This document shows positions 706 through 48,499 of a stretch of 64,000 nt of DNA, piece by piece. Under the pieces are notes generated by a model. The model ran no database searches. It was not told the DNA's origin and worked only from the letters and a program-made list of their open reading frames with translations. A program made the translations under genes and the position numbers. This stretch comes from Sphyrna mokarran (Eukaryota), in NCBI GenBank assembly GCA_024679065.1, contig JAGIQG010000009.1, positions 90,024,001 through 90,088,000 on the forward strand, given 5' to 3'. The first letter of the stretch is position 1. The number at the start of each line of letters is the position of its first letter.

Positions 706-2149
706 GCATGCTCAGTTTCAGTGACTTGTGTACAAGGACATGCACATCTCCTCTTTTAATTTATAGACATTCTGATAATAATCTGTCATCTGTTTTTGCT
801 ACCAAAGTGGATAACCTCACCTTTATCCGAATTATACTGCATCTGCCATTTATTTTCCCACTCACTCAACTTATCCAGATCATACTGAAGCATCTCTGCA
901 TCCATCTCACTGCTCACCATCCCACCCAACTTTGTCTCATCTCCAAATTTTGAGATATTACATTTAGTTCTCTCATCTAACCTACTCTGTTTCCTGTCTG
1001 CCAATCAGTTCGGTCCATCTCACTACCCTGAATCCCATGTACTTTAATTTTACATGCTAATCTTCTATATGAGACTTTGTCAAACACTTTTTTGAAAGTC
1101 CAAATCAACTACATCCACTGGCTCCTCTTCATCAACTCCACTAGTTACTCAAAGAATTCCAGTAAATTTGTCAAGCATGATTTCTTTTTCATAAATCCAT
1201 GGTGACTATGTCCTATTATGTCACTGTTTTCCGTTGTTGTTATTAAATCTTTTATAATGGACTCCAGAAAGCCTTTACTATCAATGTCAGGCTGACCTTT
1301 TTATAATTCCATTTTCTTTCTACCTGCCTTTTTAAAAAATGAGGTTACAATTAGCTACCTTTCTATCTGTAGGAACTGTACCAACATCTATATCATCTTG
1401 GAAGATGGTCACCAATCTCTCCATTATTTCTAGAGCCACTTCCTTCTATATCTGGGTATGTAGATTTTCAGGCCCTGGAGATTTATTAGTAATGGTCCCC
1501 AATCCATTGTAGTCAACTCACATCTCATACTATCGTAGCTTCCTTTATTAAGATTCAGGATCTGAGCCTCAGAATCAATTACATTACTCTTTATCTTGAT
1601 GAAGAATTCCATCATATTATGGTCATTTATCTCCAATGGGTCTTAAACAACTAGGTTGCCAATTATTTTCTCATTACACAGAACCCAGTCAAGAGTGGCA
1701 GTTCTCCTGTTGGTTCCTCAACGTATTAGTTCAAAAAATCATCACATACTATCCAGGAATTCCTCCAAGGTATTGTTACTAATATTGATTTGTCCAATCT
1801 ATATGTAGATTAAAGTCATTCATAATTACAGCTGTTCCTTATCGCGTGTCTCTAATTTCCTGTTCAATGCCACTCCCAACATCATGACTCCAGTTTGGGT
1901 TTATATACAACAGTCACTAATGCTTTTTGCCCCTTGGCATTTCTCAGTTCTACCCATACAGATTCCACATCATCGGACTGAATATCATTCCTTACTGTTA
2001 CATTAAATTTCTTCTTTAACCAGAATGCAACTCTACTGTCTTTTCCTTTTCGTCTGTCCTCCCTAATTACTGAATATCTCTGGATGTTTGATTCCTAGTA
2101 AAAATCTAGCAACACCAATTTTAAATCCAACCGATTTATTTGATAGTAA

Positions 2150-2188
2150 ATTTGCGAGCTTTCAACACTCTGTCTTCGTCAGGCAAAT
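2150..2188 (-). ncRNA. Minimal type-I hammerhead ribozyme motif in the second (inverted) pLTR
   Basis: Reverse complement atttgcCTGACGAaGACAgagTGTTGAAAgcTCgcaaat; same fold as 6382-6420 with a G-U pair closing stem II. Confidence 0.72.
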
Positions 2189-2289
2189 GCAGTGTTCTGG
2201 TCTGCAATAGCACACATATCAACACAGACAATCACGGATTGCTGATTAGAATGCGAATCCTTACATCTAACCTGCTATTCAAGTGTTAA

Positions 2290-3950
2290 CATAGAACATA
2301 GAACATTACAGCACAGAACAGGCCCTTCGGCCTTCGATGTTGCGCCGACCAATATAAAAAGCAATGCCCCTCCAAACTAAACCATTCCCTTCTCTTCCAT
2401 ATACTTATCAACTAACCTCTTAACGCCACCAAACTTGGCGCATCTACAACTGCTGCAGGCAGGGCATTCCACTCCCGAACCACCCTTTTGGTAAAGAACC
2501 TACCTCTGATATCCGTCCTATAACTATCACCCCTTAATTTAAAGCTGTGTCCCTTCGTGCTAGCTTTTTCCATCCTAGGAAAAAGGCTATCACTATCCAC
2601 CCTATCTATACCTCTAATCATCTTATATGTTTCGATTAGGTCCCCTCTTAGCCGCCTCCTTTCTAACGAAAACAACCTCAAATCCCTCAGCCTCTCTTCA
2701 TAAGACCTGCCCTCCATACCAGGCAACATCTGGTAAACCTCCTCTGTACCCTCTCCAATGCCTCCACATCTTTCTTATGTGGGGACCAGAACTGCACACA
2801 ATACTCCAAGTGCGGCCGCACTAGAGTTTTGTACAGTTGCAACATGACGTTGCGGCTCCGAAATTCAATCCCTCTACCAATAAAAGCCAAGACTCCATAT
2901 GCCTTCCTAACACCCTTCTCGACCTGACTGCCTACTTTCAGGGATCTATGCACATACACACCAAGATCCCTCTGTTCATCTATACTACTAAGAATCCTAC
3001 CATTTGCCCTATACTCTACACATTTATTATTTCTGCCATAGTGCATTACCTCACACTTTTCCACATTAAACTCCATTTGCCACCTCTCGGCCCAGCTCTG
3101 CAACTTGTGCAAGTCCCTCTGCAAACTATAACACCCCTCTTCACTATCTACCACTCCACCGACTTTAGTGTCATCTTCAAATTTACTAATCCATCCTTCA
3201 ATACCCTCATCCAGATCATTTATAAAAATTACAAACAGCAGGGGCCCCAAAACAGCCCCCTGAGGTACACCACTTGTCACCGAACTCCACGATGAATATC
3301 TCCCATCAACCACCCCCCTCTGTCTTCTATCTGCTAGCCAATTCCTAATCCAATTAGCTAAATCACCCTCTATCCCATACATCTGCATTTCTGCAGAAGT
3401 CTTCCATGGGCCACCTTATCAAACGCCTTACTAAAGTCCATATATACCACATCAACCGCCTTACCCCCATCCACCTCCTTAGTCACTATTTCAAAAAACT
3501 CAATGAGGTTAGTAAGGCACGACCTACCCTTCACAAAACCATGCTGACTATCCCCAATCAATTCATTTCTCTCTAAATATCTATAAATCCTATCCCTAAT
3601 AATTCTCTCCAATACCTTGCCCACAACAGAAGTAAGACTCACTGGCCTATAATTCCCTGGAAGGTCTCTCTTCCCTTCTTGAACAACGGGACCACATTCG
3701 CTATCCTCCAGTCCTCCGGAACCACACCCGTAACCAACGACGACCTGAAGATCAGAGCCAGAGGCTCTGCAATCTCCTCTCTTGCCTCCCAGAGAATCCT
3801 AGGGTAAATCCCGTCCTGCCCAGGGGACTTATCCAACTTCAAACCCTCGAGAATATCTAGCACATCCTCCCTATCTACTTCGATACCTTCCAGTTTGCTA
3901 CCCTGTACCTCAGTGTTCTCCATAACTACATTTACATCACCCTGCGTGAA
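2290..3950 (-). mobile_element. CR1/HER1-type LINE, 5'-truncated, inserted inside the Penelope pLTR
   Basis: RT ORFs ([29 protein letters not shown]), (gttctat)n tail at 2290-2310; pLTR sequence resumes at 3951. Confidence 0.93.
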
Positions 3951-6381
3951 TAAAGTGGCTAACAATGCGTGTGAAGGGAACCCTGAGCATTGGTTAGAGA
4001 ATTGTGTGTTTTCTCCAGACAGCACAGTAAGTGAGGTTTTTTGCTAACCCAGGCAAGTTACGGGGGTTACAGATAGTGTGACATGAAGCCATTATCCCTA
4101 TTAAGACCGTCCTCATGTGTGCGGAACTTGGCTATCAGTCTCTGCTCAGCGACTCTGCACTGTCATGTATCACGAAGGCCCCCTTGAAGAACATTTACCT
4201 GCAGGTCGGAGGCCGAACGCCCGTGACTGCTGAAGTGTTCACCCACAGGAAGGGAACTGTTTTGCCTGGTGATCGTTGAGCGATGCTCATTCATCCGCTG
4301 TTGTAGTGTCTGCGTGGTCTCCCCAATGTACTATGCTTCGGGACATCCTTTCTTGCAAGGTATTAGGTAGACAATGTTGGCCGAGTTGCAAGAGTATGTA
4401 CCATGTACCTGGTGAATGGTATCCTCACGTTTGATGATGTCGTCCATGTCTATGATCTGGCATGTCTTGCAGAGGTTGCTGTGGCAGGGTTGTGTGGTAT
4501 TGTGGTCACTGTTCTCCTGAAGGTTGGGTAGTTTGCTGCGAACAATGATCTGTTTGAGGTTGTGCGGTTGTCTGAAAGCAAGAAGTGGGGGGGTGGGGAT
4601 GGCCCTAGCGAGATGTTCATCGTCATCAATGATATGTTGAAGACTCCGGAGAAGATGTCGTAGCTTCTCTGCTCCGGGGAAGTACTGGACAACAAAGGGT
4701 ACTCTGTCCACCGTGTCCCGTGTTCGTCTTCTGAGGAGGTCAGTGCGGTTTATTGCTGTGGCACGTCGGAACTGTCGATCGATGAGTCGAGCGCCATATC
4801 CTGTTCTCACGAGGGCATCCTTCAGCGTCTGGAGGTGTCTGTCACGATCCTCCTCATCTGAGCAAATTCTGTGTATACGGAGGGCTTGTCCATAGGGAAT
4901 GGCTTCTTTAACGTGTCTAGGGTGGAAGCTGGAGAAGTGGAGCATTGTGAGGTTGTCTGTCGGTTTGCGGTACAGTGAGGTGCTGAGGTGACCGTCCTTG
5001 ATGGAGATGCGTGTGTCCAAGAATGCAACTGATTCTGGAGAATAGTCCATGGTGAGTCTGATGGTGGGATGGAACTTGTTGATATCATCATACAGTTGTT
5101 TCAATGATTGTTCACCATAAGTCCAAAGGAAAAAGATGTCATCAATGTATCTAGTATATAACCTTGGTTGAAGATCTCATGTGGTGAAGAAGTCTTGTTT
5201 GAACCTGTGCATGAAAATGTTGGCATACTGAGGTGCGAATTTGGTCCCCATGGCTGTTCCATGTGTCTGGATGAAAAGCTGATTGTTGAAGGTGAAGACA
5301 TTGTGGTCCAAGATGAAGCGGATGAGTTGTAAAATTGCATCCAGAAACTAGCAGTTGTTGGCATTGAGTACTGAGGCAGTTGCAGCAATACCATCGTCGT
5401 AGGGGATGTTGGTGTAGAGCGCCGAGACATCCATTGTGACAAGGAGTGTCCCTGGTTCTACTGCTCCATGTGTGCTGAGTTTCTGTAGGAAGTCCGTAGT
5501 GTCAAGACAAAAGCTGGGGGTTCTTTGTACAATGGGTTTCAGGATGCCCTCAATATAGCCAGAGAGGTTCTCACACAGGGTCCCATTGCCCAAAATGATG
5601 GGACAGCCGGGTATGTTTGCCTTGTGTATCTTTGGGAGGCAGTAGAGATCTCCAATGCGGGGAGTACGTGGAATGAGAGCCCGGAGGGTGTTCTGAAGGT
5701 CCTGATCAAAGGTTTTGATCAGATTGTTGAGTTGACGAGTGTGTTCTTTGGTTGGATCTGCTGGTAACTGTCTGTAGTGTTTCACATTGTTTAGTTGTGG
5801 GTACACTTCTTCACAATAGTCCATTCTGTTCAGTATGACGGTGGCGCCTCCTTTGTCTGCTGGTTTGATGACAATGTTGCGGTTGGTCTTGAGAGCACGG
5901 ATGGCCTTGCTTTGTGCTTGGGTGATGTTCGGGACGGTCTTGTAAGTGCGGTTGATGAATCTGGTGTTCACGCACCTTCTGATGGCTTGGGCATATATGT
6001 CCAGTCGGGGGCAGCGGTCTTCCGGAGGAGTCCAATTGGATTCATTCCTCTTCGGTTGCTGCACTGCAGATCCCTCTGTCGGCTGTCCTGGTTCACTAGC
6101 TGTCTCAATGTATCCAATTGGACTCTTCCGGAAGGCCGCTGCCCCAGACTGGACATGTATACCCAAGCCATCAGGAGATGCGTGAACACGAGATTCATCA
6201 ACCGCACTTACAAGACAGTCCCGAACATCACCCATCCCGAACATCACTCAGGATTCCCTTCACACACATTATTAGCCACTTTAAGACTTGAATAGCAGGT
6301 TAGATGTAAGGATTTGCATTCTAATCAGCAATCTGTGACTGTCTGTGTTGATATGTGTGCTATTGCAGACCAGAACACTGC

Positions 6382-6420
6382 ATTTGCCTGACGAAGACAG
6401 AGTGTCGAAAGCTCGCAAAT
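6382..6420 (+). ncRNA. Minimal type-I hammerhead ribozyme motif in Penelope pLTR
   Basis: atttgc-CTGACGA-a-GACA(gag)TGTC-GAAA-gc-TC-gcaaat: 6-bp stem I (atttgc/gcaaat), 4-bp stem II, palindromic AGCT stem III. One extra A follows the CUGANGA box. Confidence 0.75.
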
Positions 6421-8479
6421 TTACTATCAAATAAATCTGTTGGATTTAAAATTGGTGTTGCTAGATTCTTACTACCCCAGTCCAACGCTGGCATCTCTAC
6501 ATCATGTTTGATTCCTATCCATGGTCACACTGTAGGCATGTCTTCGTAATCCCGATTACATCATTCCTCTTTCCACCTATTGATTCTTACCCTTGGTTTC
6601 TCTGCTAATCACTTTCTTGATCCTCTCTGTCTTTTGTTCTTACCTTGTTTCCTTGTTTTAAAGCTCAGTCATTGTTACTGATGCATACCATGACCATTGG
6701 CCATTCAGCCTCCTCCTCCAGAATGTCCTGCAGCTGCTCTGAGATCTCCTTGACGCTTGCACTAGGAGGCAACATGCCATTTTGGTGTCTTGTTTGCAGC
6801 CACAGAAATGCCTATCTATGTCTCTTACCATTGAATCCTTTGTAACTATTGCATTCCCACATTTTCTCCTTCTTTCCTGTGCAGTAGAGCCAAACACATG
6901 GCAATAAATTATGCTGAGAGGCCATTCCTGTCAACAGTATCCAAGTAGTATATATTTTGTAGGGGAATGGTCACAGGAGATTCCTGCACTACCTACTTAG
7001 TGGTCATGCATTCCCTTCTTGCCTGTAGAGTTTGGGTTTGCAATATAACTACCTCTCTGTACATGCTATTCACAATACTCTCCCCAGTGTCCCAAGACAC
7101 TGCTCCAGCTCCAAAATCTGGACTTCCAGGAGCTGCAGCTGGAGATATTTCCTACATACATGCTGGCCTCATGCATTGAAAAGCATTCCCAGCTTCCCAT
7201 ATTGTGCAGGTGGCACATACCCTAGCTTTCAGCTTTCCTGCCATGACTTACCACTTTAAATTAAACCATTTGGGAGATACTTAAAATCAAATATTAATTA
7301 CTCTAGTATCCTTCTTCCCTGGTCCTCTATTGTAGAAAAATAGCCTAGACAAACTATAAACGCCAAAATAAAGACCTTATAAATTATAATAAGTAGTAAA
7401 TACTTAGTCGGCTCAGTGGTTTGCAATACCCCAGGTCATTTTTGAATCCTGTTGTCACCTCAAGAGCTCCAAACCAGTGCTCAGATTTCTTCCTGCACTC
7501 TTGCTCTGCTTTCAATCTCCTCTCATATCCTCTTCTACATGCTGGTAACTGTCTGTTCCAGTTTCCTCTTCTCACACTCTCCTCTAGGTGCTGCTGACTG
7601 TCCTTTCCCATGGCCTCTTCCCACACTTTCCTCTAGATGCTGCTGAATGTCTGTCCCAGTGCCCACCTCTCGTACTCTTGCTATCTGTCAGCCCAAATCT
7701 GAATCTTGTCCTGTCCTTGATGTATGTGAACATGAACTGCTTCTGCACAGTTATCTTTTTGAAAATAAACCTCCACCAAGTCATTAAGCAAAAAAAATGC
7801 CATCAAAATAAAATCAAAAGATTACATACAGACCAGCAGGCAACATTATTGTTTTAGTTATGAAGACTAGACTTTGAATTGATACAAGGTGATCCAGCAA
7901 AATATAAACTGCTTTTCCTGGAAAATTGACTATAAAGGAGCTTCACATAATGGAAAATTACTTGGGAAAGCAGAATAATTTTCTGGGAATATACAAATCA
8001 CGGTTTAAACTAAGACAGTAGGATATAATTGGGTATTCTGCTTTTAAACAAAGTTTCAGAGGACAGTTTGGTTTGCCACTATAGTAAACCCATTCTCCTG
8101 AAAAGGAGTAAACATTGAACCTGTTATAGCCCTGTACAACAGTCAAGAAGAAAATATTTTTAATTGTCATTCAGAGATTTTAGGAGAGAGAGTAAAGTTT
8201 TAGGTGACTGTAAAGTTAATAGCATTTTTGCATTAGGTATTGATGAAGATTCAACATGTTGGAAGAAAACATTCTAGAGAGGGGACACATTGTGTTTGGT
8301 AAGTGGTAAAGTTGCTAAAGCAATAATGCAGAGACCCGATCTAATATCTGGGGACATCCTACCACAACAGTTGATGGAGTTCAATGTTTTAAAAACGTTT
8401 AATGGAAAGCCAGTCTATTTCATTGATCAAAACCGTGTTCATTAATGCCTTTAGGGAAAGAAATTTTTTATTCTTTTTT

Positions 8480-19070: not shown

Positions 19071-19321
19071 GTTTTAGTGTCCAAGATAACCTCATGCATT
19101 GTCATGTTACTGCTGTTATTAGTTGGATGTATCACTTAGAGACAAACCAACAAGCAGAATCTCATTGCTTTGGAATGCTGGAATTATATGTGATCTTGGG
19201 CTCATTTTGTTCTGGAAAGTTCCAGGGAACAAACACCTTGACATTTCCTGAACCACATCTGCTTAGAATTCCAGCTGAGGGATTGGTTAAACTGCAGAGG
19301 GCTCTGTCTCCAGTAGATGGT

Positions 19322-19571
19322 AAGAACTCAGTAAGAATTTAGCAACACCAATTATTAATCCAACCGATTTATTTGATAGTAAAATAGCGAGCTTTCAACA
19401 CTCCCGTGTCTTCATCAGGCAAGTGCAGTGTTCTTGCACTTGCCTGATGAAGACACGGGAGTGTTGAAAGCTCGCTATTTTACTATCAAATAAATCGGTT
19501 GGATTAATAATTGGTGTTGCTAAATTCTTACTGAGTTCTTACCACTCCAATCCAACGCCGGCATCTTTACA
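19322..19571. mobile_element. Miniature Penelope-derived fold-back element (two inverted pLTR arms), 13-bp TSD
   Basis: Perfect inverted repeat 19318-19427 / 19435-19544 with a 7-nt loop; arms homologous to the pLTR at 6370-6475; 3' extension ctccaatccaacgccggcatctttaca as at 6476-6503; TSD tccagtagatggt at 19309-19321 and 19572-19584. Confidence 0.9.
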
Positions 19572-20599
19572 TCCAGTAGATGGTGTCAGGGTCTTGCTAT
19601 CACACGGGATTAGAGGAATCTGTAACCTTACAGAACATTCTCTACCTGACAATGAGTGACTCACACTGAAGACTAGCTCCCCATTGGGTCTTAGTGCCTG
19701 ACTGACAGATAGATGTTGTTGTGTTTTGAGTTTCTGGTATCAGATCCTGTTACACAATGACATTTAGAATAATGAGTGTGTACAATATACCAAATATTGT
19801 TTGATCTACAGCTTGATCTGATATGATTGAGTGAGAATGCAGGTTTCTGGTGTCTGTTTCAGAATAGCAAGATTCAGAACCAGTCAGGTTTCAGACACTA
19901 AAACAAAGCTCACTGAGATATTTCTATAATCCAGTCTGGACTGAAACCCACTAACTCTTTTACAAGGGTGACATTTGCACTAATGTGAGGTAATCCTGCA
20001 CCTGGTGATTCAAAGGATTTTCATCCTTCAGTTGGGTAGCTGGAGTTGGGAAAATCCTCATCTCAGCCCACCTGACTTGAGAGAAGTGCCCGCAAAATCC
20101 AGATCTTCATTAGAGGGGCTGGGTATGGGTTGTTGTCAGACCCAGGAGGAAGTGAGAAGGCAGCCACAGGACCTGTCAGGTGAAGGGGAGGGCTGGTAGG
20201 CACATCTCACTAACATGGGATTTTGCCTCTATAATAAAAGCACAAAGGCCCTCCAGCCCTCACTCCTGACACCCCCTCACCCTGTAAACTCTCACTGTCC
20301 AGTCCATGTCCCCATCCCCTTCGATCCCACATGGCTTTTCATGCCCGCATGTCAAGCTTGGCCCTTCAGCTCAACCTACTTAATCCCTGATGCTCCCACC
20401 ATGACAGACTATGGCACTTTTATGCCCAGTGCCACACTGCATACTGCCTAGACCCAATGATTTCTCTGGGGGACTGTAAATCATAACTCTTTAAAAACCA
20501 GCTTGTCTCCATGCAAACTGCAGAACAGTAGGATCTACCTAATGTCACAGTGATTCTGAATAGGAGACAAGAACAGGTGCGGCTCCTTTATAGGAACAA

Positions 20600-21200: not shown

Positions 21201-21512
21201 ACGTGACCAAAGTATTTTATGAAATTCTTATAATTTCTGCATATAATTTTTCTCCTTGAATGGTGGATTTTGAATAAATAGAGTTATTAAATGGTTTATA
21301 GGCAATAGGGTTTGATCTCTGGGGTCACCGCACTGAACATGATAAAATTCTCCCCCCTTTCCCCACTGGGCTCAGGATGTTATTTAACTATCGGGAGGTG
21401 AATCCATGGGGAGGAGCCGCGGGACTGAATCCAGTCCCGGTTTCCCCGGGGCTGCTCTCACTCTCACCCGCCCGGGGCCCGGGGCCCGGGGAGGGTGAAC
21501 CCGGTCACTCAC

Positions 21513-21761
21513 CTCTCGGTTCCGCGGTTCCGTTCCAGCGGTTCTTCAAAACATTTAAATTGTTTTTCGCGGTGGCGATTTCGGCTGAGATTCCCTCCTC
21601 TCCTCCCTGTATTCTGATGTGCTGGAACTCGGGAATCCGCGCCACCTCTTTCTTCAGTTTAAAATCCATGTAATAAACCTCATCCCAGTCATCCTCCACA
21701 TCCCACTGTTTATCCGGAAAACTGTCCTGAACAAACAGGACCAGGCGATGCCGGTGAACAT
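21513..21761 (-). CDS. mhc2a: MHC class II alpha chain, exon 2 (alpha-1 peptide-binding domain)
   Basis: Acceptor ctctctctcacacag|AT and donor AG|gtgagt; 249 nt, phase 1-1, no stops. Translates (Y)VHRHRLVLFVQDSFPDKQWDVEDDWDEVYYMDFKLKKEVARIPEFQHIRIQGGEEGISAEIATAKNNLNVLKNRWNGTAEPR, with the class II alpha-1 motifs DE-x-Y-Y-M-D, KKE-V-A-R-I-P-E-F, KNNL and the N-G-T sequon. Confidence 0.95.
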
Positions 21762-37500: not shown

Positions 37501-38951
37501 ATCACAAAAAGAGGTACCTGATGAGCTGTAACTGATGGTTGAATGAGGGAGCCTCATGTTCCCTATTTGAAGCAGGTGTATCAGTCTCTCAGTCTGCCAC
37601 AGCAGAGAGATACTAGGAGTGCTAGCTCTGTATATATAGTATAGCTGGTAAATAAAGAAGCTTGGTGATGGAATTCTCGCCTCCATGGAGTTATTTCAAT
37701 TGCATCGCATTTCCTTCTGTTAACTTAATTGGAGAGGGAAATGGCTGCAAAATTCATCTCTGCTGTGCTGGTGGCTTGTTGTACGGGATCTGGTTGGGGT
37801 AAAAGTGGCAGGAGAATTGTTCTGGACTATTTATAGTATAGACCACATCAATCGCCATACTGTGGAAGATGGGCGTGCCAGGGACATACAGAGTGGAAGG
37901 TCACGATATCAGTCAGTGTGTAATGCTGACTTATGGTCCAATCTACATTTTGGACTGAGCACTCCTGTTATTGTCCTCTATTATATGTGATGAGCAGAAT
38001 TTTATACCCTTATTGCACCCGTTTTGCGGTGGAAAAAGATCATAAAATTGGAAGTGCTGGAACTAGCGGGAATGGTAACTATTTTCATACCCATTTCAAT
38101 TTTACCAAAAAATATCGGTGTGATTGGGACCTTGTCCAAAATGGGTGAAACACTATTTTTATTTTTTTGCATTCGTCACAATGTAATTAACGAGCTTCAC
38201 TCCTAATCACCCCAGCTTACCTTCCTTAACCACCTTGTTCGCTGCCGCTAGAACTGATCAAGAAAACATCTTATGTTTAAAAGTCAGATTCAGATGCTGA
38301 AGCACAGAGGGTAGGTGGTGAGGAGGTCAGTCTCTGCTTTCAAATGGATCTGTGCTGTTCAAGGAGGAGGGGGGGAACTGTTTCATAGCAGCCATGTTGC
38401 ATTTCAGGTTGCACGGGGCTGCAAGTGTGTGGAGGATGGGGAGCTTTTGGTGCTCATTGGGTCTGACTTCAGCCTCTCAGCTTGGACTTGGTCTGAGTGC
38501 CAACCTTGGGGCTTGGCGCTGACTCTGGGTCCTAGTGCATGGCAACAGCAAACACTGTTGCAGGTGGGGGATGAGCTGGAAACTCTCTGAAGTGTCAGCA
38601 CTGCAGCCTCAGCACTTTGTGAAGAAGCACTGTCTGGGGACACCCACTACATGGGTTCTGGGTGTGTGTGTGAGGGGTGGAATAGGAGCCCTGTGTTGCC
38701 ATTCTGGGGGACTATGGGGGTTTATAAGGAATGCGTGATGCTGGGGATCTGTTTGGTGGAGCATGAGCAATGTGCGTTCCTGGGGGGATATGGGGAGTAT
38801 GGGGAGTGTGTGTGTTGCTGGGGGTCTGTGTGGGGAAGTATGGGAAATGTGTGTTGCTAGGAGTCTGTTGAAGAGGGTATGGGGAATGCGTGTGGCTGGG
38901 GCTGTGTTGAGGGGGTATGGGGAGTGTGTGTGGCTGGGACAGTGTGATGCT

Positions 38952-39793
38952 ACAAATCCTACCTTGGCGCCTCAACGTGGCGTAGGAGTGACACTGGCCG
39001 AACATCAGCAAAGTACGGTGGAGATTCGCTCTCTGACAGGCCTAACCAAGCTGTGAAGGTGATATTCCTTCGGTATACTACTAGACTAGATTTGGTAGTA
39101 GGACCGTGGCTAGCTAAGTCAAGGAGGTAACTGAGGACGTCGGCAGCAGGGCGTCTGATGGTGTTTGTGGCAGATGAACCCAAAGGGTCAATGGTACAGT
39201 CACCTTGATGGCATGCGGAAGAACCAGAGTGCTGGTCAACGGATGAATCATTAGACTAGTTGTCACTGTGGGGCAGCTTTCTTATCCGCTAAGTATGTTA
39301 TACTTCTGCGTACCACTTAGCATCAGATTTGGAAGCCCAGAGAGACTGTATGGTGGGGGCACGACACCGTCTGTCTCATTACTGTGCAAGGCGTGTTGGA
39401 AGTAAAGTTCCTGGATGACATTGAAAGCCCTATGGCGATGGAGTTAATGTGACGGCAGCAGGATTGAGGAGCTGGAAGCTGCTAACTTGAGCTCTGCACA
39501 TAGGCGGCTCACACAAGAAGGTCGCTACCTTGTTGAGTTTTCTGAGCAACAACAAGGTTGAGGCAGCTATGTGAGTGTCCGGGCAGCCCTTTTTAGGGAC
39601 AGCACTGCCCGCCCTGAAAGGGGAAGCCCCTAGAAAAGGTGGGGTAAAGATACAAATCAGACAAATCACAGTTGCCACCGACGTGGGAGACAATGCCGAT
39701 CCAATACAGGCCTTATAACACACCACCGTGCCTGCAGAATCTAAACTTCCAACACAGCCAACATCGAAATCGATGGACGGCTGAAGGGGAGGG
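38952..39793 (+). mobile_element. Non-autonomous bipartite RTE-derived retroelement (5'UTR fused to the extreme 3' end), 8-bp TSD
   Basis: TSD gtgatgct at 38944-38951 and 39794-39801; RTE 5'UTR-like motifs (gggcagcccttttagggacagcactgccc...cctagaaaaggtg); RTE C-terminal Cys/His remnant HSCHRRGRQCRSNTGLITHHRACRI* at ~39667-39744; no EN/RT. Confidence 0.72.
38956..39050 (+). ncRNA. Candidate HDV-like self-cleaving ribozyme at the 5' end of the RTE-derived element
   Basis: P1 (a)tcctac 38956-62 / gtagga(g) 38982-88; P2 cttgg 38963-67 / ccaag 39046-50; P3 gcc/ggc around L3 TCAACGT; P1.1 CA/TG; P4 region 38991-39041; J4/2 CTAA 39042-45. Confidence 0.62.
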
Positions 39794-39970
39794 GTGATGC
39801 TGGGGGTTTGTGTGGGTGGGTGTAGAGAGTGTGTGTTGCTGGGGTCTATGTGGGGGGGTTATGGGGACTGGGTGTTGCTGGGAATTTGTATGCAGGGCAT
39901 GGGGAGTATGTGTTGCAGGGGATTTGTTTGTGTGGCTATGGGAAGTGTGTGTTGCTGCTGTTTGTTGGGG

Positions 39971-40716
39971 GTGTAGAGAGTATAGGGCTAATGGTAGGAC
40001 TCTTAATAGTGTTGACAAACAAAGGGATCTTGGTGTATATGTGCGTAGATCCCTGAAAGTTGGCAATCAAGTCGATAAGGTTGTTAAGAAGGCATACTGA
40101 GTCTTGGGTTTTATTGGTAGGGGGATTGAATTTCGGAGCCGCAACGTCATGTTGCAACTGTACAAAAGTCTGGTGCAGCCACACTTGGAGTATTGTGTGC
40201 AGTTCTGGTCCCCGCATTATAAGAAAGATGTGGAGGCATTGGAGAGGGTGCAGAGGAGGTTTACCAGGATGTTGCCTGGTATGGAGGGAAGATCTTATGA
40301 GGAGAGGCTGAGGGATTTGAGGCTGTTTTCATCAGAAAGAAGGCGGCTAAGAGGAGACCTTATTGAGGCATATAAGATGATCAGCGGATTAGATAGGGTG
40401 GACAGTGATAGCCTTTTTCCTCGGATGGAGAAAGCTAGCATGAGGGGACATAGCTTTAAATTAAGGAGTGGTAGTTATAGGACGGATGTCAGAGGTAGGC
40501 TCTTTACCCAGAGGGTGGTAAGGGTATGGAATGCCCTGCCTGCTGCAGTTGTAGATGCGCCAAGTTTGGGGGTGTTTAAGAGGTCAGTGGATAGGTTTAT
40601 GGATGAAAAGGGAATGGTTTAGGTTAGAGGGTCATTGCTTTTTCTTAATTGGTCGGCGCAACATCGAGGGCCGAAGGGCCTGTTCTGCGCTGTAATGTTC
40701 TGTTTTATGTTCTATG
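39971..40716 (+). mobile_element. CR1/HER1 LINE 3' fragment
   Basis: ORF 40104-40622 and tail. Confidence 0.93.
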
Positions 40717-41741
40717 GGTGTAGGGTATGGGGACTGTGTGTTGCTGCGTGGTGTGTGGCGAGGTATGGGGAGTATGTGTTGCTGGGGGTGTGTTGGAGGG
40801 GTATGGAGAGAGTGATTGCTGGGGGAGTTGGTGGGGAGGTATGGGAAACATGCATTGCAGGGGGTCTGTGGGGGATTATGGGGAGTGAGTGATACTGGGG
40901 GTCTGTGTGGAGGGTTGAGGGCAGTGTGTGTCGATGGCGGTATGTAGGTGTGATAAATGTGGAGTCTGTGTTGCTTCGGGGTCTGTAGGGGGAATATGGG
41001 GAGTATGTGTTGCTGAGGGAGTATGTGTTGGGGATGATATGGGGAATGTGTGTTGCTGAGGGAGTGTGGGGAGGAGTACGTGGAGTGTGTGTGTTGCTGG
41101 GGGAGTGAGGGGGTGTGGTTTGGGGGGTGTATGTGATGCTGAAAATCTATTGCGAGAGGTGTATGGGGAGTATATGTTGGTGGGGGGGTTGGGGGTGGAA
41201 TTTGGGGAGTATTCATTGCTGGGGATCTGTTGGAGGGTTATGGGGAATGTGTGTTGTTGGGGGTCTATCGTGGGGTATGGAGAGTGAGTTACTGCTGGGA
41301 TCTGTTGGGGGATTGTAAAGGGAGTGTGTGTACTGGGGTCTGTGGGGAGGATGTGGGAGGGTACATGTTGCTAGGTGTCTGTATGGAGGGGTATGTGGAG
41401 GTTATGTTGCTGGGCTGGTGTTGTGGGAGAGTGGTTTGGGGAGTGTGTGGTGCGGGGGGTCTGTTGAGAGAAGTGCATGGGTGTGTGTGTGTGTTGCTGG
41501 GGGTCTGTGGAGGGTTATAGGGACTGTGCATTGCTGGGAATGTGTGGGGTGAGTATAGGGAGCGTGTGTTACTTTGTGTCTATGTGAGGGATATGGTGAT
41601 TGTGTGTTGTTGGGAGAATGTGTGGGGTCATATGGGGACTGCGTTTCTGGGGATAAGTTGGATAGCATGGGGAGTTGTGTTTTGCTGGAGGTATGTGGGG
41701 GAGGGAGTGGGGAATGTCTATTGCTGGGTGTCTGTGGGGGA

Positions 41742-43925
41742 TATAGAACATAGAACATAGAACATTACAGCGCAGAACAGGCCCTTCGGCCTTCGATGTT
41801 GTGCCGACCAATTAGGAAAAAGCAATGACCCTCTAACCTAAACCATTCCCTTTTCGTCCATAAACTTATCTACTAACCTCTTAAACGCCACCAAATTTGA
41901 TGCATCTACAACTGCAGCAGGCAGGGCATTCCATACCCTTATCACCCTCTGGGTAAAGAACCTACCTCTGACATCCGTCCAATAACTACCACCCCTTAAT
42001 TTAAAGCTATGTCCCCTCGTGCTAGCTTTCTCCATCCTAGGGAAAAGGCTATCACTGTCCACCCTATCTAAACCTCTAATCATCTTATATGTTTCAATAA
42101 GGTCTCCTCTTAGCTGCCTTCTTTCTAACGAAAACAACCTGAAATCCCTCAGCCTCTCTTCATAAGACCTGCCCTCCATACCAGGCAACATCCTGGTAAA
42201 CCTCCTCTGCACCCTCTCCAATGCCTCTACATCTTTCTTATAATGCGGGGACCAGAACTGTACACAATACTCCAAGTGCGCCCACACTAGAGTTTTGTAC
42301 AGTTGCAACATGACGTTGCGGCTCCGAAATTCAATCCCCCTACCAATAAAAGCTAAGACTCCGTATGCCTTCTTAACAACCTTATCGACTTGATTGCCAA
42401 CTTCCAGGGATCTATGCACATATACACCAAGATCCCTCTGTTCATCAACACTATTAAGAGTCCTACCATTAGCCCTATACTCTACACATTTGTTATTCGT
42501 GCCAAAGTGAATTACCTCACACTTTTCCACATTAAACTCCATTTGCCACCTCTCGGTCCAGCTCTGCAACTTGTCCAAGTCTCTCTGCGAACTAGAACAC
42601 CGCCCTTCGCTATCTACCACTCCTCCGACTTTGGTGTCATCCGCAAATTTACTAATCCATCCTTCAATACCCTCATCCAGATCATTTACAAAAATTACAA
42701 ACAGCAGGGGCCCCAAAACAGATCCCTGAGGTACACCACTTGTAACTGAACTCCACGATGAATAATTTCCATCAACCACCACCCTCTGTCATCTATCAGC
42801 TAGCCAATTCCTAATCCAATTAGCTAAATCACCCTCAATCCCATATATCTGCATTTGCTGCAGAAGCCTTCCATGGGGCACCTTATCGAACGCTTTACTG
42901 AAGTCCATATATACCACATCAACTGCCTTACCCCCATCCACCTCTTTGGTCACTTTTTCAAAAAACTCAATAAAATTAGTAAGGCATGACCTATCCTTCA
43001 CAAAACCATGCTGACTATGCCCAATCAATTCATTTCTCTCTAAATAACTATAAATCCTATCCCTAATAATTCTTTCCAATAGTTTGCCCACAACAGAAGT
43101 ATCTAACTTCAAACCCTCAAGAACATCTAGCACATCCTCCTTATCTACTTCAATACTTTCCAGTTTACAACCCTGTATCTCAGTGTTCTCCACAACTACA
43201 TTTACATCTCTCTGCGTGAATACTGAAGAGAAATATTTGTTCAGTGCCTCTCCAATCTCTTCAGGCTCCACGCACAACTTCCCACTGCTGTCCATGACTG
43301 GCCCTAATCTTGCCCTAACCAATCTTCTATTCTTAACATATCTAAAGAAAGCTTTAAGATTCTCCTTGACCCTATCAGCCCTATCTTGTGTCCCCTTTTA
43401 GCTCTCCTCAACTCACTCTTTAGCTCCCTCCTGGCTAATCTATAGCTATCCAGTGCACTAACTGAGCCTTCAAGCCTCATCCTGACATAAGCCTCCTTTT
43501 TCTTTTAACCAGCAAATTAACTTTTTTAGTACACCATGGTTCCCTTACTCGACCATTTCCTCCTTGCCTGATAGGGACATACTTATCAAGGACTCGCAGT
43601 AGCTGCTCCTTGAATAAGCTCCACATTTCAGATGTTCCCAGTCCCTGTAGTTTCCTAGTCCAACCTATGCACCCTAATTCCCTCCTTATGGCCTCATAAT
43701 TACCATTCCCCCAGCTATAACTACTGCCCCCAGGTTCATGCCTATCCCTATCCATCACTAAGGTGAACGTAACCGAATTGTGGTCACTATCACCAAAATG
43801 TTCACCAACTTCCAAGTCTAACACCTGGTCTGGCTCATTGCCCAGCACCAAATCCAATATAGCCTCACCTCTAGTTGGCCTATCTACGTACTGAGTCAAA
43901 AAACCTTCCTGCACACTTTGTATAA
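41742..43925 (-). mobile_element. CR1/HER1 LINE, 5'-truncated with internal deletion
   Basis: ORFs 43477-43914, 42789-43322 (LKLD joined directly to TSVVGK, i.e. deletion near 43100) and 41838-42782; tail at 41742-41765. Confidence 0.95.
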
Positions 43926-44494
43926 AAAAAATGGAGAAAGTGTGTTGCTGTGGGGTGTGGGCAGGATGGTTTGGGGAGCGTGCTGCTGGGGATTTGTTGA
44001 GGGGGGCGTATAGGGAGTGTGTGTGGAGAATTAAGGGGAGTGTGTATTGTTGGGGGTCTGTTGGAGGGTAAGAGGAATTTGTGTTACAGGGAGTCTGTTG
44101 GGGGGTATGGGGAATGTGTGTTGCTGAGGGTCTGTGAGGGTTGTGGGGTGTGGGGAATGTGTGTTGCTGAGGGTCTGTGGGGAGTATGGGGTGTGGGGAG
44201 TGTGTGTTGCTGAGGGGCTGTTGGGGGGCTATGGGGTGAGTGTGTTGCTAGGGGTCTGTTGTGGGTGTGGGGTGTGGGGAGTGTGTGTTGCTGGTGGGCT
44301 GTTGGAGGGGCATGGGGAATGTGTGTTGCTAGGGGTCTGTTGAGATGGTACAGGTAATGTGTGCTGCTGGGACAGAGGAGTGCTGGGGGAATACGGGGAA
44401 GGTGTGTTGCTGGGGAGGTGTGAGGGGATATGGAGAATGTCTATATCTGGGATCTGTGGAGAAGGTATGGACAGTGTGTGGGGGTTAGGGGGGA

Positions 44495-45812
44495 CATAAG
44501 AAGATAAGAAATAGGAGCAGGAGTCGGATATCTAGCCCTTCGAACCTGCCTCACTATTCAATAGGATCATGGCTGATCTCAAAGTGATTCAATTCCACTT
44601 ATCCACCTGCTCCCCATAACCCTTAATTCCCTTATCACTGAGAAATCTATCTACCTGTGACTTAAAAATATTCAATTCCATCGCTTCAATGGGCAGAGAA
44701 TTCCAAAGATTCACTACCCTCTGAGCGGAGAATTTTCTTCTCAACTCTGTACTAAACTGACTCCCCCTTATTTTGAGGCTGTGTCCCCTAGTTCTTGTTT
44801 CCTTTCTAAGTGGAAAGAATCTCTCTGCTTCTACCCCATCTAGCCCCTTCATTATCTTATATGCCTCTATAAGATCTCCCCTCAGCCTTCTAAACTCCAA
44901 CGAGTACAAGCTCAATCTATTCCATCTCTCCTCATAAACTAATCCCCTCATCTCCGGTATCAATCTTGTGAACCTTCTCTACTCTTCCTCCAAGGCCAAT
45001 ATATCCTTTTGCAAATAAGGGGACCAAAACTGCACACAGTACTCTAACTGCGGCCTTACCAGTGCCCTGTACAGTTGCAGCAAGACCTCCCTGCTTTTAT
45101 ATTCTATCCCCCTCGCTATAAAGGCCAACATTCCATTCACCTTCTTGATCACCTGCTGCACCTGCAGACTGGGTTTTTGTGATCCATGCACAAGGACACC
45201 AGGTCCCTCTGCACAGTAGCATGTTGTAATTTTTCACCATGTAACTAATAGTCCATTTTACTATTATTCCTTCCAAAGTGGATAACCTCACATTTGCTAA
45301 TGTTATACTCCATCTGCTAGCTCCTCGTCCACTCACTCAGCCTATCCAATCTCTCTGCAACTTTCTGCGTCCTCCATGTAAATTGCTTTCCCATTCATCT
45401 TTGTGTCACTAGCAAACTTTTTTACCCTACACTTAGCCCCTTCCTCCAAGTCATCTATGTAAATAGTAAACAGTTGAGGCCCCAGCACCGATCCCTGCGG
45501 AACTCCACTAGCCACCAACTGTCAACGGGAAAAGCATCCATTTATTCCAACTCTCTGCTTCCTGTTAGATAGCCAATCCTCAATCCACACTAACACTTTA
45601 CCCCCAACTCTGTGTACCTTAATCTTTTGCAGCAACCTTTTGTGAGGCAACTTATCGAACGCCTTCTGGAAATCTAAAAACACACGTGCACTGGTCGCCT
45701 TCTGTCTACCGCACTCATTACATCTCCATAAAAATCCAGTAAATTCGTCAAACACAACTTTCCCTTCATTAATCCATACTGCGTCTACTTAATTGAACCA
45801 TTCTTTTCCAGA
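44495..45812 (-). mobile_element. CR1 LINE (different subfamily), RT to tail
   Basis: DFQKAFDKLPHKRL, LYRALVRPQLEYCVQFWSP, LRGDLIEAYK; tail cataagaagataagaaatagg. Confidence 0.92.
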
Positions 45813-48499
45813 ATGTGTTGCTGGGAGTGTGTGGGGGTATGGGGAGTGTAATTACTGGGAGGCTGTGTGGGAGTGTATGAGGAATCTGTGTTGCTAGGGA
45901 TGAGTTGATGAGCATGGTGAGTTGTGTTTTGCTGGGGGTATGTGGTGGAGGGTGTGGGGAATGTCTATTCCTGGGCGCCTGTGAGGAATGTGTGTTGCTT
46001 GGGAGTGTGTGCTGTTGGCGATCTGTTGAGCAGTGCAAATGGGGAGTGTGTGTTGCTGGGGGTCTGTGGGGAGTTAAGGGGAGTGTGTGTTGCTGCAGTG
46101 TTTTGAGGGGTATAGGGGGTACGTGTTGCTGGGAGTGGCGTGGAGGGATATGGAGACCGTCTGTTGCTGGGATCTCTGGGGAGGGGATGGGGAGTCTCTA
46201 TTGCTGGGTGTCTGTGAGGGAGGGTGTACGGGTTGAGTATGTGGTTGGGGTCTGTGCAGAGGGATATGGGTCATGTTGTTGCTGCGAGTGTGTGGGGGAG
46301 GGTGTGAAGAGTGCGTTACTGAGTTTCTGTTGGAAGAGTGTGGAGAGTGTGTGTTGCCATGGGTGTGTTGGGGAGGATATGGGAGTGTGTATTTTTTAGG
46401 ATCTGTTGGGGGATATGGGGAGTATGTGTTACTGAAATGTCTGTGCGGGGTGTATAGGAAGTGTTTGTTGCTGGGAGTGTGTGGGGGAGTATGAGGATTG
46501 TTTATTGCTGGAGGTCTATTGGCTGGGGATGGGCAGTATGGGGAGTGTGTGTTGCTGGGCTGGGTGCAGAGTTCTTGAATTTTTCCTCCTATCTCTCCCC
46601 CTTCCCAACCTGCCTCCATCTCTTCAGATTGACAAAATATCTTTTGTGATGCAGCTGATCAATCTGTTGGTTGCTGCTGGATCTGAGGAGGATCAGCTGG
46701 AAAATGAATTGTGGACCCAGGAGGCACAGGCCTCACCACTCACAGGAAGAGAGGGAGATGACCACTGGAGGCAGAATGTGGCCACCATTCGCCCTTGGGT
46801 GGGAAGGAGGGTGGAGAGCCCCCTTGGAGAGCCTTAAATGTTTACACCACAGGGTCTTTCCAGACCCCAGGAGGAGACCTTTGTGGAATTTCCCGATCAT
46901 CCATCCACAAGTGTGTTAAGGAGGTCATGGATGTCCTGTAACCCAGTGTATTAAACTTGACGCGGACCAGGCCCAGCAGGAAGCACAGGCAGTAGGATTC
47001 GCAGCCATCACGGGGATGCCTAATGAACAGGGGGCTATAAACTGCACCCACGTCGCTCACTGAAAAATCCTGCAAGATTCATGAACAGAAAGAGCTTCCA
47101 TTCCATCGATGTGCAGTTAGTGTGTGACCATCAGCTGAATGTAACGCACGTCTTCACCAGGCACCCGGCAGCGTGCATGGTGGTTTTATATTGAGGAGCT
47201 CCAATGTCCTGGATGTCTTTGAGGGGGAGGCGAGAGTGCAGCTCATGGGGAATATTGGGTTACTTGTTTCAGATTTGGCTGATAACGCCTGCGCAAAGGC
47301 CTGAGTCTGAGACAGAGACCCGTTATAATGAGGCCCACATTGTCACCAGTTCAATAGTAGAGTGGTGCATCGGGCTCCTCAGGATGCAGTTCAGGTTCCT
47401 GGACTGCTCTGGCAGGGCACTCTGATATAGCCCCCATAATATCTTCCCACATTGTGATGGTGTGCTGTGCCTTTCACAACCTGGCACAGAGAGGAGGAGG
47501 AGGTGTAGGCCATCCAGTCAGGCATAGCTAGGGATGAGACCACCCAGCAGGAGGAGGATGACGATAACCAACTCCAGCGGGCGCTGGAGGGCTGGCAGCA
47601 GCAAAGATCAGGAATTCGAGGGCAGCAGGGAGGTCACTGTACGCTCGCTCATGAGAGGCCTGTGTTACTGCACATGGGTTCCATTCACCCCCTCACTGCC
47701 CTCCTTGGAGTCCTTCAATCTCCTGTAACATCATTACATCAGAGTGGTGGGCCTGGGTACGTCGTCTTAGTGAGTTTTTTGACAGGCAGGTATGGACTAT
47801 GAATCATAATGATGATGCACTAGTGCAAACTAGTCTGACTCCCACTGGAGCTCCATATTCACCATGCAGGCTAGCAGCTGGGTGGGACAAGAATCTCTCC
47901 CGGTTTCTGGGAATGCCATGGCAGTTGTAAGTTGTCAGCCTGTGAATATTTTGAGCGCATTGATTTTCACAGCAGCAGTGCTTTGAGGGCCCTCCCCCAC
48001 TGACAACCATGTGCAGGGAAACTCGGGGTAAATACATTCCTGCTGGAGGTGAATCTCTGAGACAAATGGTGTGGAATGCAATAACATTTATTGGTGCCAA
48101 TTAAATGGGGGGGTGGGGTGGGGGAGGTGCAGTTTCCACCACTCTGAGCAAGAGTGGGAGGTGAAGACTTGTATTTGGATTCACAGTTGGGCCGTACCTG
48201 GGCTGAAGGAGACCAGAGTCTTCTCACCTACTGACAGAGAAATTCCATGTCAGCCTCTCCTTCCCACCACCTGACCCCGGGGCACTTACACCTTGGTATC
48301 CCTTTCCTTACCATTGTATTCTTCCCTCTCTTCTCCTGGCCACTCCTTTCTCCCAGCTATCTCCATATCTAAGGGAGGAAGGGGAGATTAGCTTTCCAAC
48401 TCAACACTCCCTCCCCGAACCATTGATTACATAATGCCAAACAACCACCTGGAGTGCCTGTAACACTATCCTAATGGCGGGGTCTTCCAAAGCTACTTA

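Follow-up and report, generated by a model that had tools for sequence, protein, structure and literature searches.

An ultra-short head-to-head insertion of a Penelope-like element in Sphyrna mokarran and the genome-wide population of similar hairpins

The window, i.e., the whole 64,000-nucleotide stretch of Sphyrna mokarran DNA analyzed here (contig JAGIQG010000009.1, positions 90,024,001 to 90,088,000), was searched for MHC exons with Pfam; a regex scan of the window gave nothing useful. Exon 2 of an MHC class II alpha (IIA) gene was located on the minus strand, and an in-frame C1-set exon 3 was found about 6.6 kb before base 1 of the window, giving an intron 2 of about 28.1 kb. An earlier note, made from the letters of this DNA, had placed a long hairpin downstream of exon 2, and the exon positions support its location within this intron, 1.9 kb past the donor. 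Arrays of a degenerate G-rich minisatellite (38–39 bp), with LINE-like copies in between, occupy 38700–46400 of the window. The features discussed below are as follows.

2098..6503, no strand: longer head-to-head insertion, in the same intron, from a sister subfamily; its long inverted arm carries a broken RT ORF and its short sense arm a tail; 14-bp TSD
19309..19321, plus strand: left TSD, 13 bp, its last 4 nt complementary to the element at the short-arm end
19322..19434, minus strand: tailless arm, a 5'-truncated pLTR that covers -11 to about +102 as counted from the hammerhead anchor, loop 19428–19434 included
19389..19418, minus strand: the tailless arm's minimal type I hammerhead motif, with cleavage predicted to follow 19389
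19428..19434, no strand: head-to-head junction and loop, blunt, no microhomology; three further loci have the same junction
19435..19571, plus strand: tailed arm, a 5'-truncated pLTR from -4 to +132, ending 0–2 nt before the ATG of the family ORF
19444..19473, plus strand: minimal type I hammerhead motif of the tailed arm, predicted cleavage after 19473
19545..19571, plus strand: tail past the mirror, 27 nt (31 nt past the element part of the short arm)
19572..19584, plus strand: right TSD, 13 bp
21513..21761, minus strand: MHC class II alpha exon 2 (Pfam), with its donor at 21512 and the hairpin 1.9 kb away

The segment 19318–19427 is the exact reverse complement of 19435–19544, with a 7-nt loop (GTGTTCT) between the two 110-bp arms and a 13-bp TSD at 19309–19321 and 19572–19584. 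These values confirmed the hairpin as the earlier note had described it, except that 4 of the 110 paired bp lie inside the left TSD, so that only 106 bp belong to the element. The loop is also element sequence and forms part of the left arm, while the right arm extends 27 nt beyond the mirror; each arm thus has bases absent from the other, and neither is nested inside its partner. When perfect inverted repeats with a loop of 30 nt or less were sought, the 15 longest of those listed for the window all corresponded to 19318–19544. The minus-strand RNA of the hairpin folded at -208.8 kcal/mol (z -29.6), and none of 200 shuffled sequences was equally stable; the palindrome is far beyond chance. 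An Rfam search returned miRNA-hairpin matches, all below the gathering scores, and no hammerhead model; a miRNA identity was dropped, since these matches reflect the hairpin shape alone. A fold-back at a TGCA palindrome was likewise considered for the window junction and dropped, because the family has CCAGAACAC upstream and the join is consequently blunt. Of 133 positions of the tailed arm, 132 agreed with a copy of the family and the sole mismatch is a common allele, which supports a young age for the insertion. The proposed origin from a Penelope pLTR by a very recent and extreme truncation was supported.

To characterize the family, a 37-nt stretch over the hammerhead was searched in the 2.77-Gb genome, giving 2,172 exact matches. 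Among the 100 matches listed there were 25 back-to-back pairs, 11 with a spacer of at most 40 nt and the others with spacers up to 3.8 kb. The long pairs are two 5'-truncated copies placed head to head, i.e., the layout of the hairpin with arms of up to kilobases. One family copy (L096), whose end sequence is the same as that of the hairpin, retains an open frame of 924 amino acids with RVT_1 (E 2.6e-9) and GIY-YIG (E 9.1e-5) matches. Its translation shows a C-x4-C-x2-C linker ahead of GIY-YIG and, within the latter, two cysteines; a CX2-5CxxC linker is given as a mark of the Neptune and Nematis clades in the available text of PMC8557442, and the linker cysteines suggested that the family is of Neptune/Nematis type. 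The nearest named proteins are from sharks and are about 80–86% identical. The tail ends at the ATG of the family ORF. RT with GIY-YIG at the C terminus in one ORF, an inverted 5'-truncated copy at the 5' end, a one-sided tail, and a TSD, the marks of EN+ Penelope-like elements (PLEs), were all found. The hairpin is therefore well explained as an ultra-short head-to-head insertion of an EN+ PLE, the known layout at its shortest.

The end repeats of the 4.4-kb element at 2098–6503 are 86–91% identical to those of the hairpin family. Its coding part sits in the long arm that is inverted, and a 1.66-kb insert at about 2290–3950 interrupts it. The hairpin had been regarded as a copy of this element with the coding sequence removed; this relation was not borne out, as the longer element belongs to a sister subfamily and is itself a long head-to-head insertion. 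It is an older insertion, with a repeated ORF fragment near its junction, and its nested insert is LINE-like, presumably CR1/L2-like from its motifs.

Several small derivatives of the family were observed elsewhere in the genome. At L170:1568-3020, a 155-nt unit (pLTR +38 to +136 joined to ORF 1–60, without the hammerhead core) is repeated in tandem within one insertion, about 7.6 times on one arm and about 1.8 times on the inverted one, and the same unit was seen again on another contig (L143:1426-1672). These units look like rolling copies of a mini-circle that would start near the predicted cleavage site. Tandem 166-nt units (hammerhead core and ORF 1–41) and 142-nt units were present at L171:1015-1735 and L172 as retrozyme-like derivatives of the family. 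Three internally deleted mini-elements (L141, L149, and L168) have the first 121–170 nt of the ORF joined to the pLTR, with the identical deletion on both arms.

The earlier note had also reported a hammerhead with a GNRA stem II loop in each arm, and the core motifs were found at 19444–19469 (plus) and 19393–19418 (minus), with a GGGA loop that fits GNRA. The motif at 19444–19473 consists of CUGAUGA, an extra A, a 5-bp stem II with the GGGA loop, GAAA, and a palindromic AGCU stem III; it has the core of the minimal type I form (C3–A9, G12–A15.1, and U16.1–H17), the extra nucleotide after A9, and the palindromic stem III. In place of the G10.1–C11.1 pair it has a G.U, and stem I has two contiguous pairs instead of a helix I of 4–5 bp. 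Both traits are found family-wide; the weakness of stem I noticed earlier was therefore real, whereas decay of the window copy does not account for it. As far as the available texts of PMC4209133 and PMC6765202 describe them, minimal hammerheads of metazoan PLEs share the core, the extra nucleotide between 9 and 10.1, the palindromic 15.2–16.2, and the lack of loop 3, and they need dimers and cleave slowly; the shark motif differs in the G.U at 10.1–11.1, in the 2-pair stem I, and in facing its own complement. A transcript of either strand of the hairpin would hold one motif together with its perfect complement, and forcing a hammerhead-like fold within the hairpin cost about 52 kcal/mol in RNA folding. 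The hammerheads are accordingly predicted to be locked in duplex and inactive. The inserted hairpin is most likely inert, because each motif would be held by its complement, the motifs lie on opposite strands so that one transcript provides no dimer, and the ORF-5' sequence is lacking.

Further, we examined how many similar hairpins the genome contains. Back-to-back pairs of one subfamily numbered 160 with spacers of 0–30 nt, 52 with spacers of 31–60 nt, and 24 with spacers of 61–90 nt; these counts, from exact patterns that miss variant copies, are lower bounds and amount to at least 236 loci. We analyzed 50 listed loci of the 160, five with spacers of 31–39 nt, and four with the window junction, 59 in total, and removal of one duplicate with identical ends and TSD left 58. 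One hairpin with the same TSD was seen twice on a single small contig, 61 kb apart (L055 and L056), probably as a segmental duplicate. Exactly one arm was tailed at 54 of the 58 loci, neither at four, and both at none, the other arm being about 35 nt shorter. A TSD of 11–16 bp was present at 55 of 58 loci. The tail ends were sharp (+129 to +142) and the short ends broader (48/53 at +87 to +106); the tail was on the junction-longer arm at 27 loci, on the junction-shorter arm at 20, and on one of two equal arms at six. Forty-one different junctions occurred among the 58 loci, of which 18 were blunt, 28 had 1–5 nt of microhomology, and 12 had insertions. The arms were identical over 86 nt at 34 of 52 loci (six with short arms or indels were left out), indicating that arm perfection is common and reflects youth.

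MITEs, like the hairpins, are short, palindromic, non-coding elements with a TSD, and they have fixed symmetric termini. In contrast, the ends and centre of the hairpins differ by copy, and their sequence derives from a retroelement. The notion of a single MITE-like family was not supported, given the 41 junctions among 58 loci; moreover, the hairpins lack the ORF-5' sequence that is kept by the small re-amplified derivatives. A family defined by the loop junction of the window copy held in part, with four loci, two of them sharing a private SNP, but no large set of copies alike in both ends and centre was found among the loci analyzed, and these four all differ in their ends.

Arms of the hairpins often end no more than about 20 nt upstream of the hammerhead. 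A 5-bp stem-loop predicted there may be one cause, and the RNA 5' end may be another. In addition, 74 shorter hairpins were counted genome-wide across subfamilies, and by their coordinates 17 of 50 listed had a spacer of 6 or 10 nt, so that one or both arms end at the predicted cleavage site; this could mean that cleaved RNA sometimes served as a template, or that the GC and AGCT palindromes merely favor joins there.

As the origin of the hairpin we favor, as a fairly probable reading, priming from both nicked target strands with two start sites, early stops, and end-joining. The element protein would nick the two strands 13 bp apart, and each free 3' end would prime one cDNA, that of the tailed arm starting at the distal site beside the ATG and that of the short arm about 30–40 nt upstream. 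Both cDNAs would mostly read one source transcript, sometimes two different ones, and would often stop early, within the above 20 nt upstream of the hammerhead; end-joining of the two would give the palindrome. L1 twin priming is a related process, in which the second target strand primes a second cDNA and an inversion arises via end-joining; there, the inversion comes from another part of the RNA, whereas both hairpin cDNAs would cover one stretch.

The arms agreed at a common two-base allele at 50 of 55 loci, compared with 45% expected at random, suggesting that both arms usually come from one source, and the five discordant loci suggested that two templates are sometimes used. Such discordance of common alleles cannot result from copying one arm from the other and favors twin priming. 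The overlap between TSD and template averaged 1.7 nt at the tail end and 1.9 nt at the short end, against 0.5 and 0.45 when permuted (n=53); matches of 1–3 nt at both ends are as expected for target priming. The rule of one tail and one short arm, the TSD, the non-nested arms in the window, and the occurrence of the tail on either the longer or the shorter arm were also counted for twin priming.

This scheme has parallels in the Poseidon element PAc of Anolis carolinensis. As described in the available text of PMC11167929, the protein nicks and extends both strands in vitro, is predicted to dimerise, starts reverse transcription at two neighboring sites delimiting the tail, and requires the ORF-5' sequence on its template. 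However, Poseidon is a different clade, so that transfer of this biochemistry to the Neptune/Nematis type would be by analogy; the same text reports priming without homology to the target, whereas the shark hairpins match it at both ends, and the PAc hammerhead overlaps the ORF start, whereas that of the shark family lies about 100–130 nt upstream of the ATG. Other points weigh against twin priming: the 50 of 55 matched arms are also predicted by fold-back copying, the enrichment of junction microhomology also fits self-priming, the model does not explain why stops cluster just upstream of the hammerhead, the palindrome is not crossed by any read, and inherited junctions imply that not every centre formed de novo, the window junction itself being present at four loci.

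This last point leads to an unlikely but distinct origin of the window hairpin, namely that its centre was inherited, either because a hairpin transcript was re-retrotransposed or because a break in the middle of a palindrome was followed by ectopic gene conversion, while its ends and TSD are its own. The four loci with the window junction each have their own TSD and ends, with the tail on either arm. One SNP in the hammerhead core occurs at only two sites in the genome; both are loci with the window junction, which carry it on the loop-bearing arm but have different TSDs and tails on opposite arms. Similarly, L047 and L175 have a common junction, the same discordant allele pair, and one private SNP. 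Twenty further loci were fetched, picked for recurring junctions. In this set, all members shared the allele in five of five groups with insertion-bearing junctions, including one trio with a 15% allele, whereas alleles were mixed in three of three groups with simple junctions (p ~3e-4, a post hoc value in which the split between simple and complex junctions is a judgement). That complex junctions recur, accompanied by identical rare alleles or private SNPs, at sites unlinked to one another suggested that some palindrome centres were inherited between these sites, by re-mobilisation or gene conversion. As for the window copy, it has no private variant tying it to any other locus, and, by a rough estimate, one blunt junction could plausibly have arisen about three times independently; errors of polishing among near-identical loci may also underlie shared variants. 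The 58 loci included no two-tailed hairpin. A source locus with a short junction continuing into the ORF was not present among exact patterns with spacers of 0–30 nt in the one assembly, where three matches all ended within about 8 nt of the ATG, nor among 30 of the 112 tail-to-ORF loci.

If re-mobilisation is the route, hairpin stubs might constitute a second-generation mobile class, in which hairpin transcripts are re-inserted in trans with their junction and the tail is rebuilt on either arm, a proposal that we regard as tentative and rather doubtful. The genome would then hold many small families of palindromic, ribozyme-locked, non-autonomous elements. No description of inherited Penelope hairpin junctions was found in the literature searched, from which most subscription papers were absent; the supplements of PMC11167929 and PMC3846280 may show similar short insertions.

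Self-priming, in which the antisense strand folds back and copies itself and the endonuclease resolves the hairpin at two alternative sites to leave a tail on one arm, was proposed for head-to-head PLE junctions by Arkhipova et al. in 2013 (PMC3846280), and the tail is attributed to EN resolution in the available text of PMC8557442. It would account for the matching arm pairs and for junction microhomology above the null (mean 1.25 versus 0.65, n=44 insertion-free junctions), and, with endonuclease trimming, for non-nested arms. However, 18 of these 44 junctions, including that of the window, offer no microhomology to prime on, the arms are discordant at five of 55 loci, and both ends carry the target-template matches that target priming predicts. 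We consider self-priming improbable for the window copy; thus, of the hairpin-primed integration suggested earlier, the truncation product stands, while simple hairpin priming is weakened by the blunt junction, the non-nested arms, and the discordant loci. An assembly or sequencing artefact from a fold-back read is very improbable: in the best public run the element is not crossed by any contig, which is uninformative either way with short-read contigs, but the mirror symmetry ends at the TSD, the two arms differ in extent, the insertion has its 13-bp TSD, and comparable loci, numbering in the hundreds, show differing junctions and ends.

Compared with the inverted-pLTR insertions of EN+ PLEs described in the available texts of PMC3846280 and PMC8557442, the hairpins share the head-to-head 5'-truncated copies, the 30–40 bp tail at one end, the TSD, and the pLTR hammerhead, but copy only about 110–137 nt and thereby form perfect hairpins, occur at no fewer than the above number of loci in one subfamily, and include some junctions that recur with shared rare variants. 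Non-LTR retrozymes, as far as they are described in the available text of bioRxiv 10.64898/2026.07.22.740005, are likewise small, non-coding, PLE-derived, and hammerhead-bearing, but they are head-to-tail tandem units, whereas the hairpin is one head-to-head pair. A single locus of this kind is ordinary retrotransposon debris. As a set, however, the young hairpins are a natural record of how PLEs build inverted copies, a question left unsettled in the available texts of the PLE papers cited here, in which arm alleles, end positions, and junction types discriminate twin priming from self-priming. The present data add a population-level test of mechanism and evidence for inherited junctions. If such junctions spread by re-mobilisation, they would represent a non-autonomous form that is new; should gene conversion be responsible, they would mark the breakage of palindromes and their ectopic repair in a vertebrate germ line.

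With regard to the host gene, a selected regulatory RNA for MHC IIA (dsRNA, small-RNA source, or active ribozyme) is least probable of all, for although the hairpin lies in intron 2 and a 110-bp duplex is predicted on the pre-mRNA strand, the insertion is very young, hundreds are alike, the ribozyme is predicted to be locked, and other long inverted repeats occur in the same intron. The potential for dsRNA and for ADAR or Dicer action is hypothetical and nothing special to MHC. In run X1, the start of one contig coincides with the first base of the right TSD, and the depth of this contig is about double that of its neighbors; judging from the contig boundaries, this would fit filled and empty alleles meeting there, and X1 could itself be the sample that was assembled. 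Should the insertion be polymorphic, it would serve as a simple MHC haplotype marker. Two more copies of MHC II alpha exon 2 (L118 and L119) were observed on the same contig, about 280 kb and 500 kb away, and are 87% and 77% identical.
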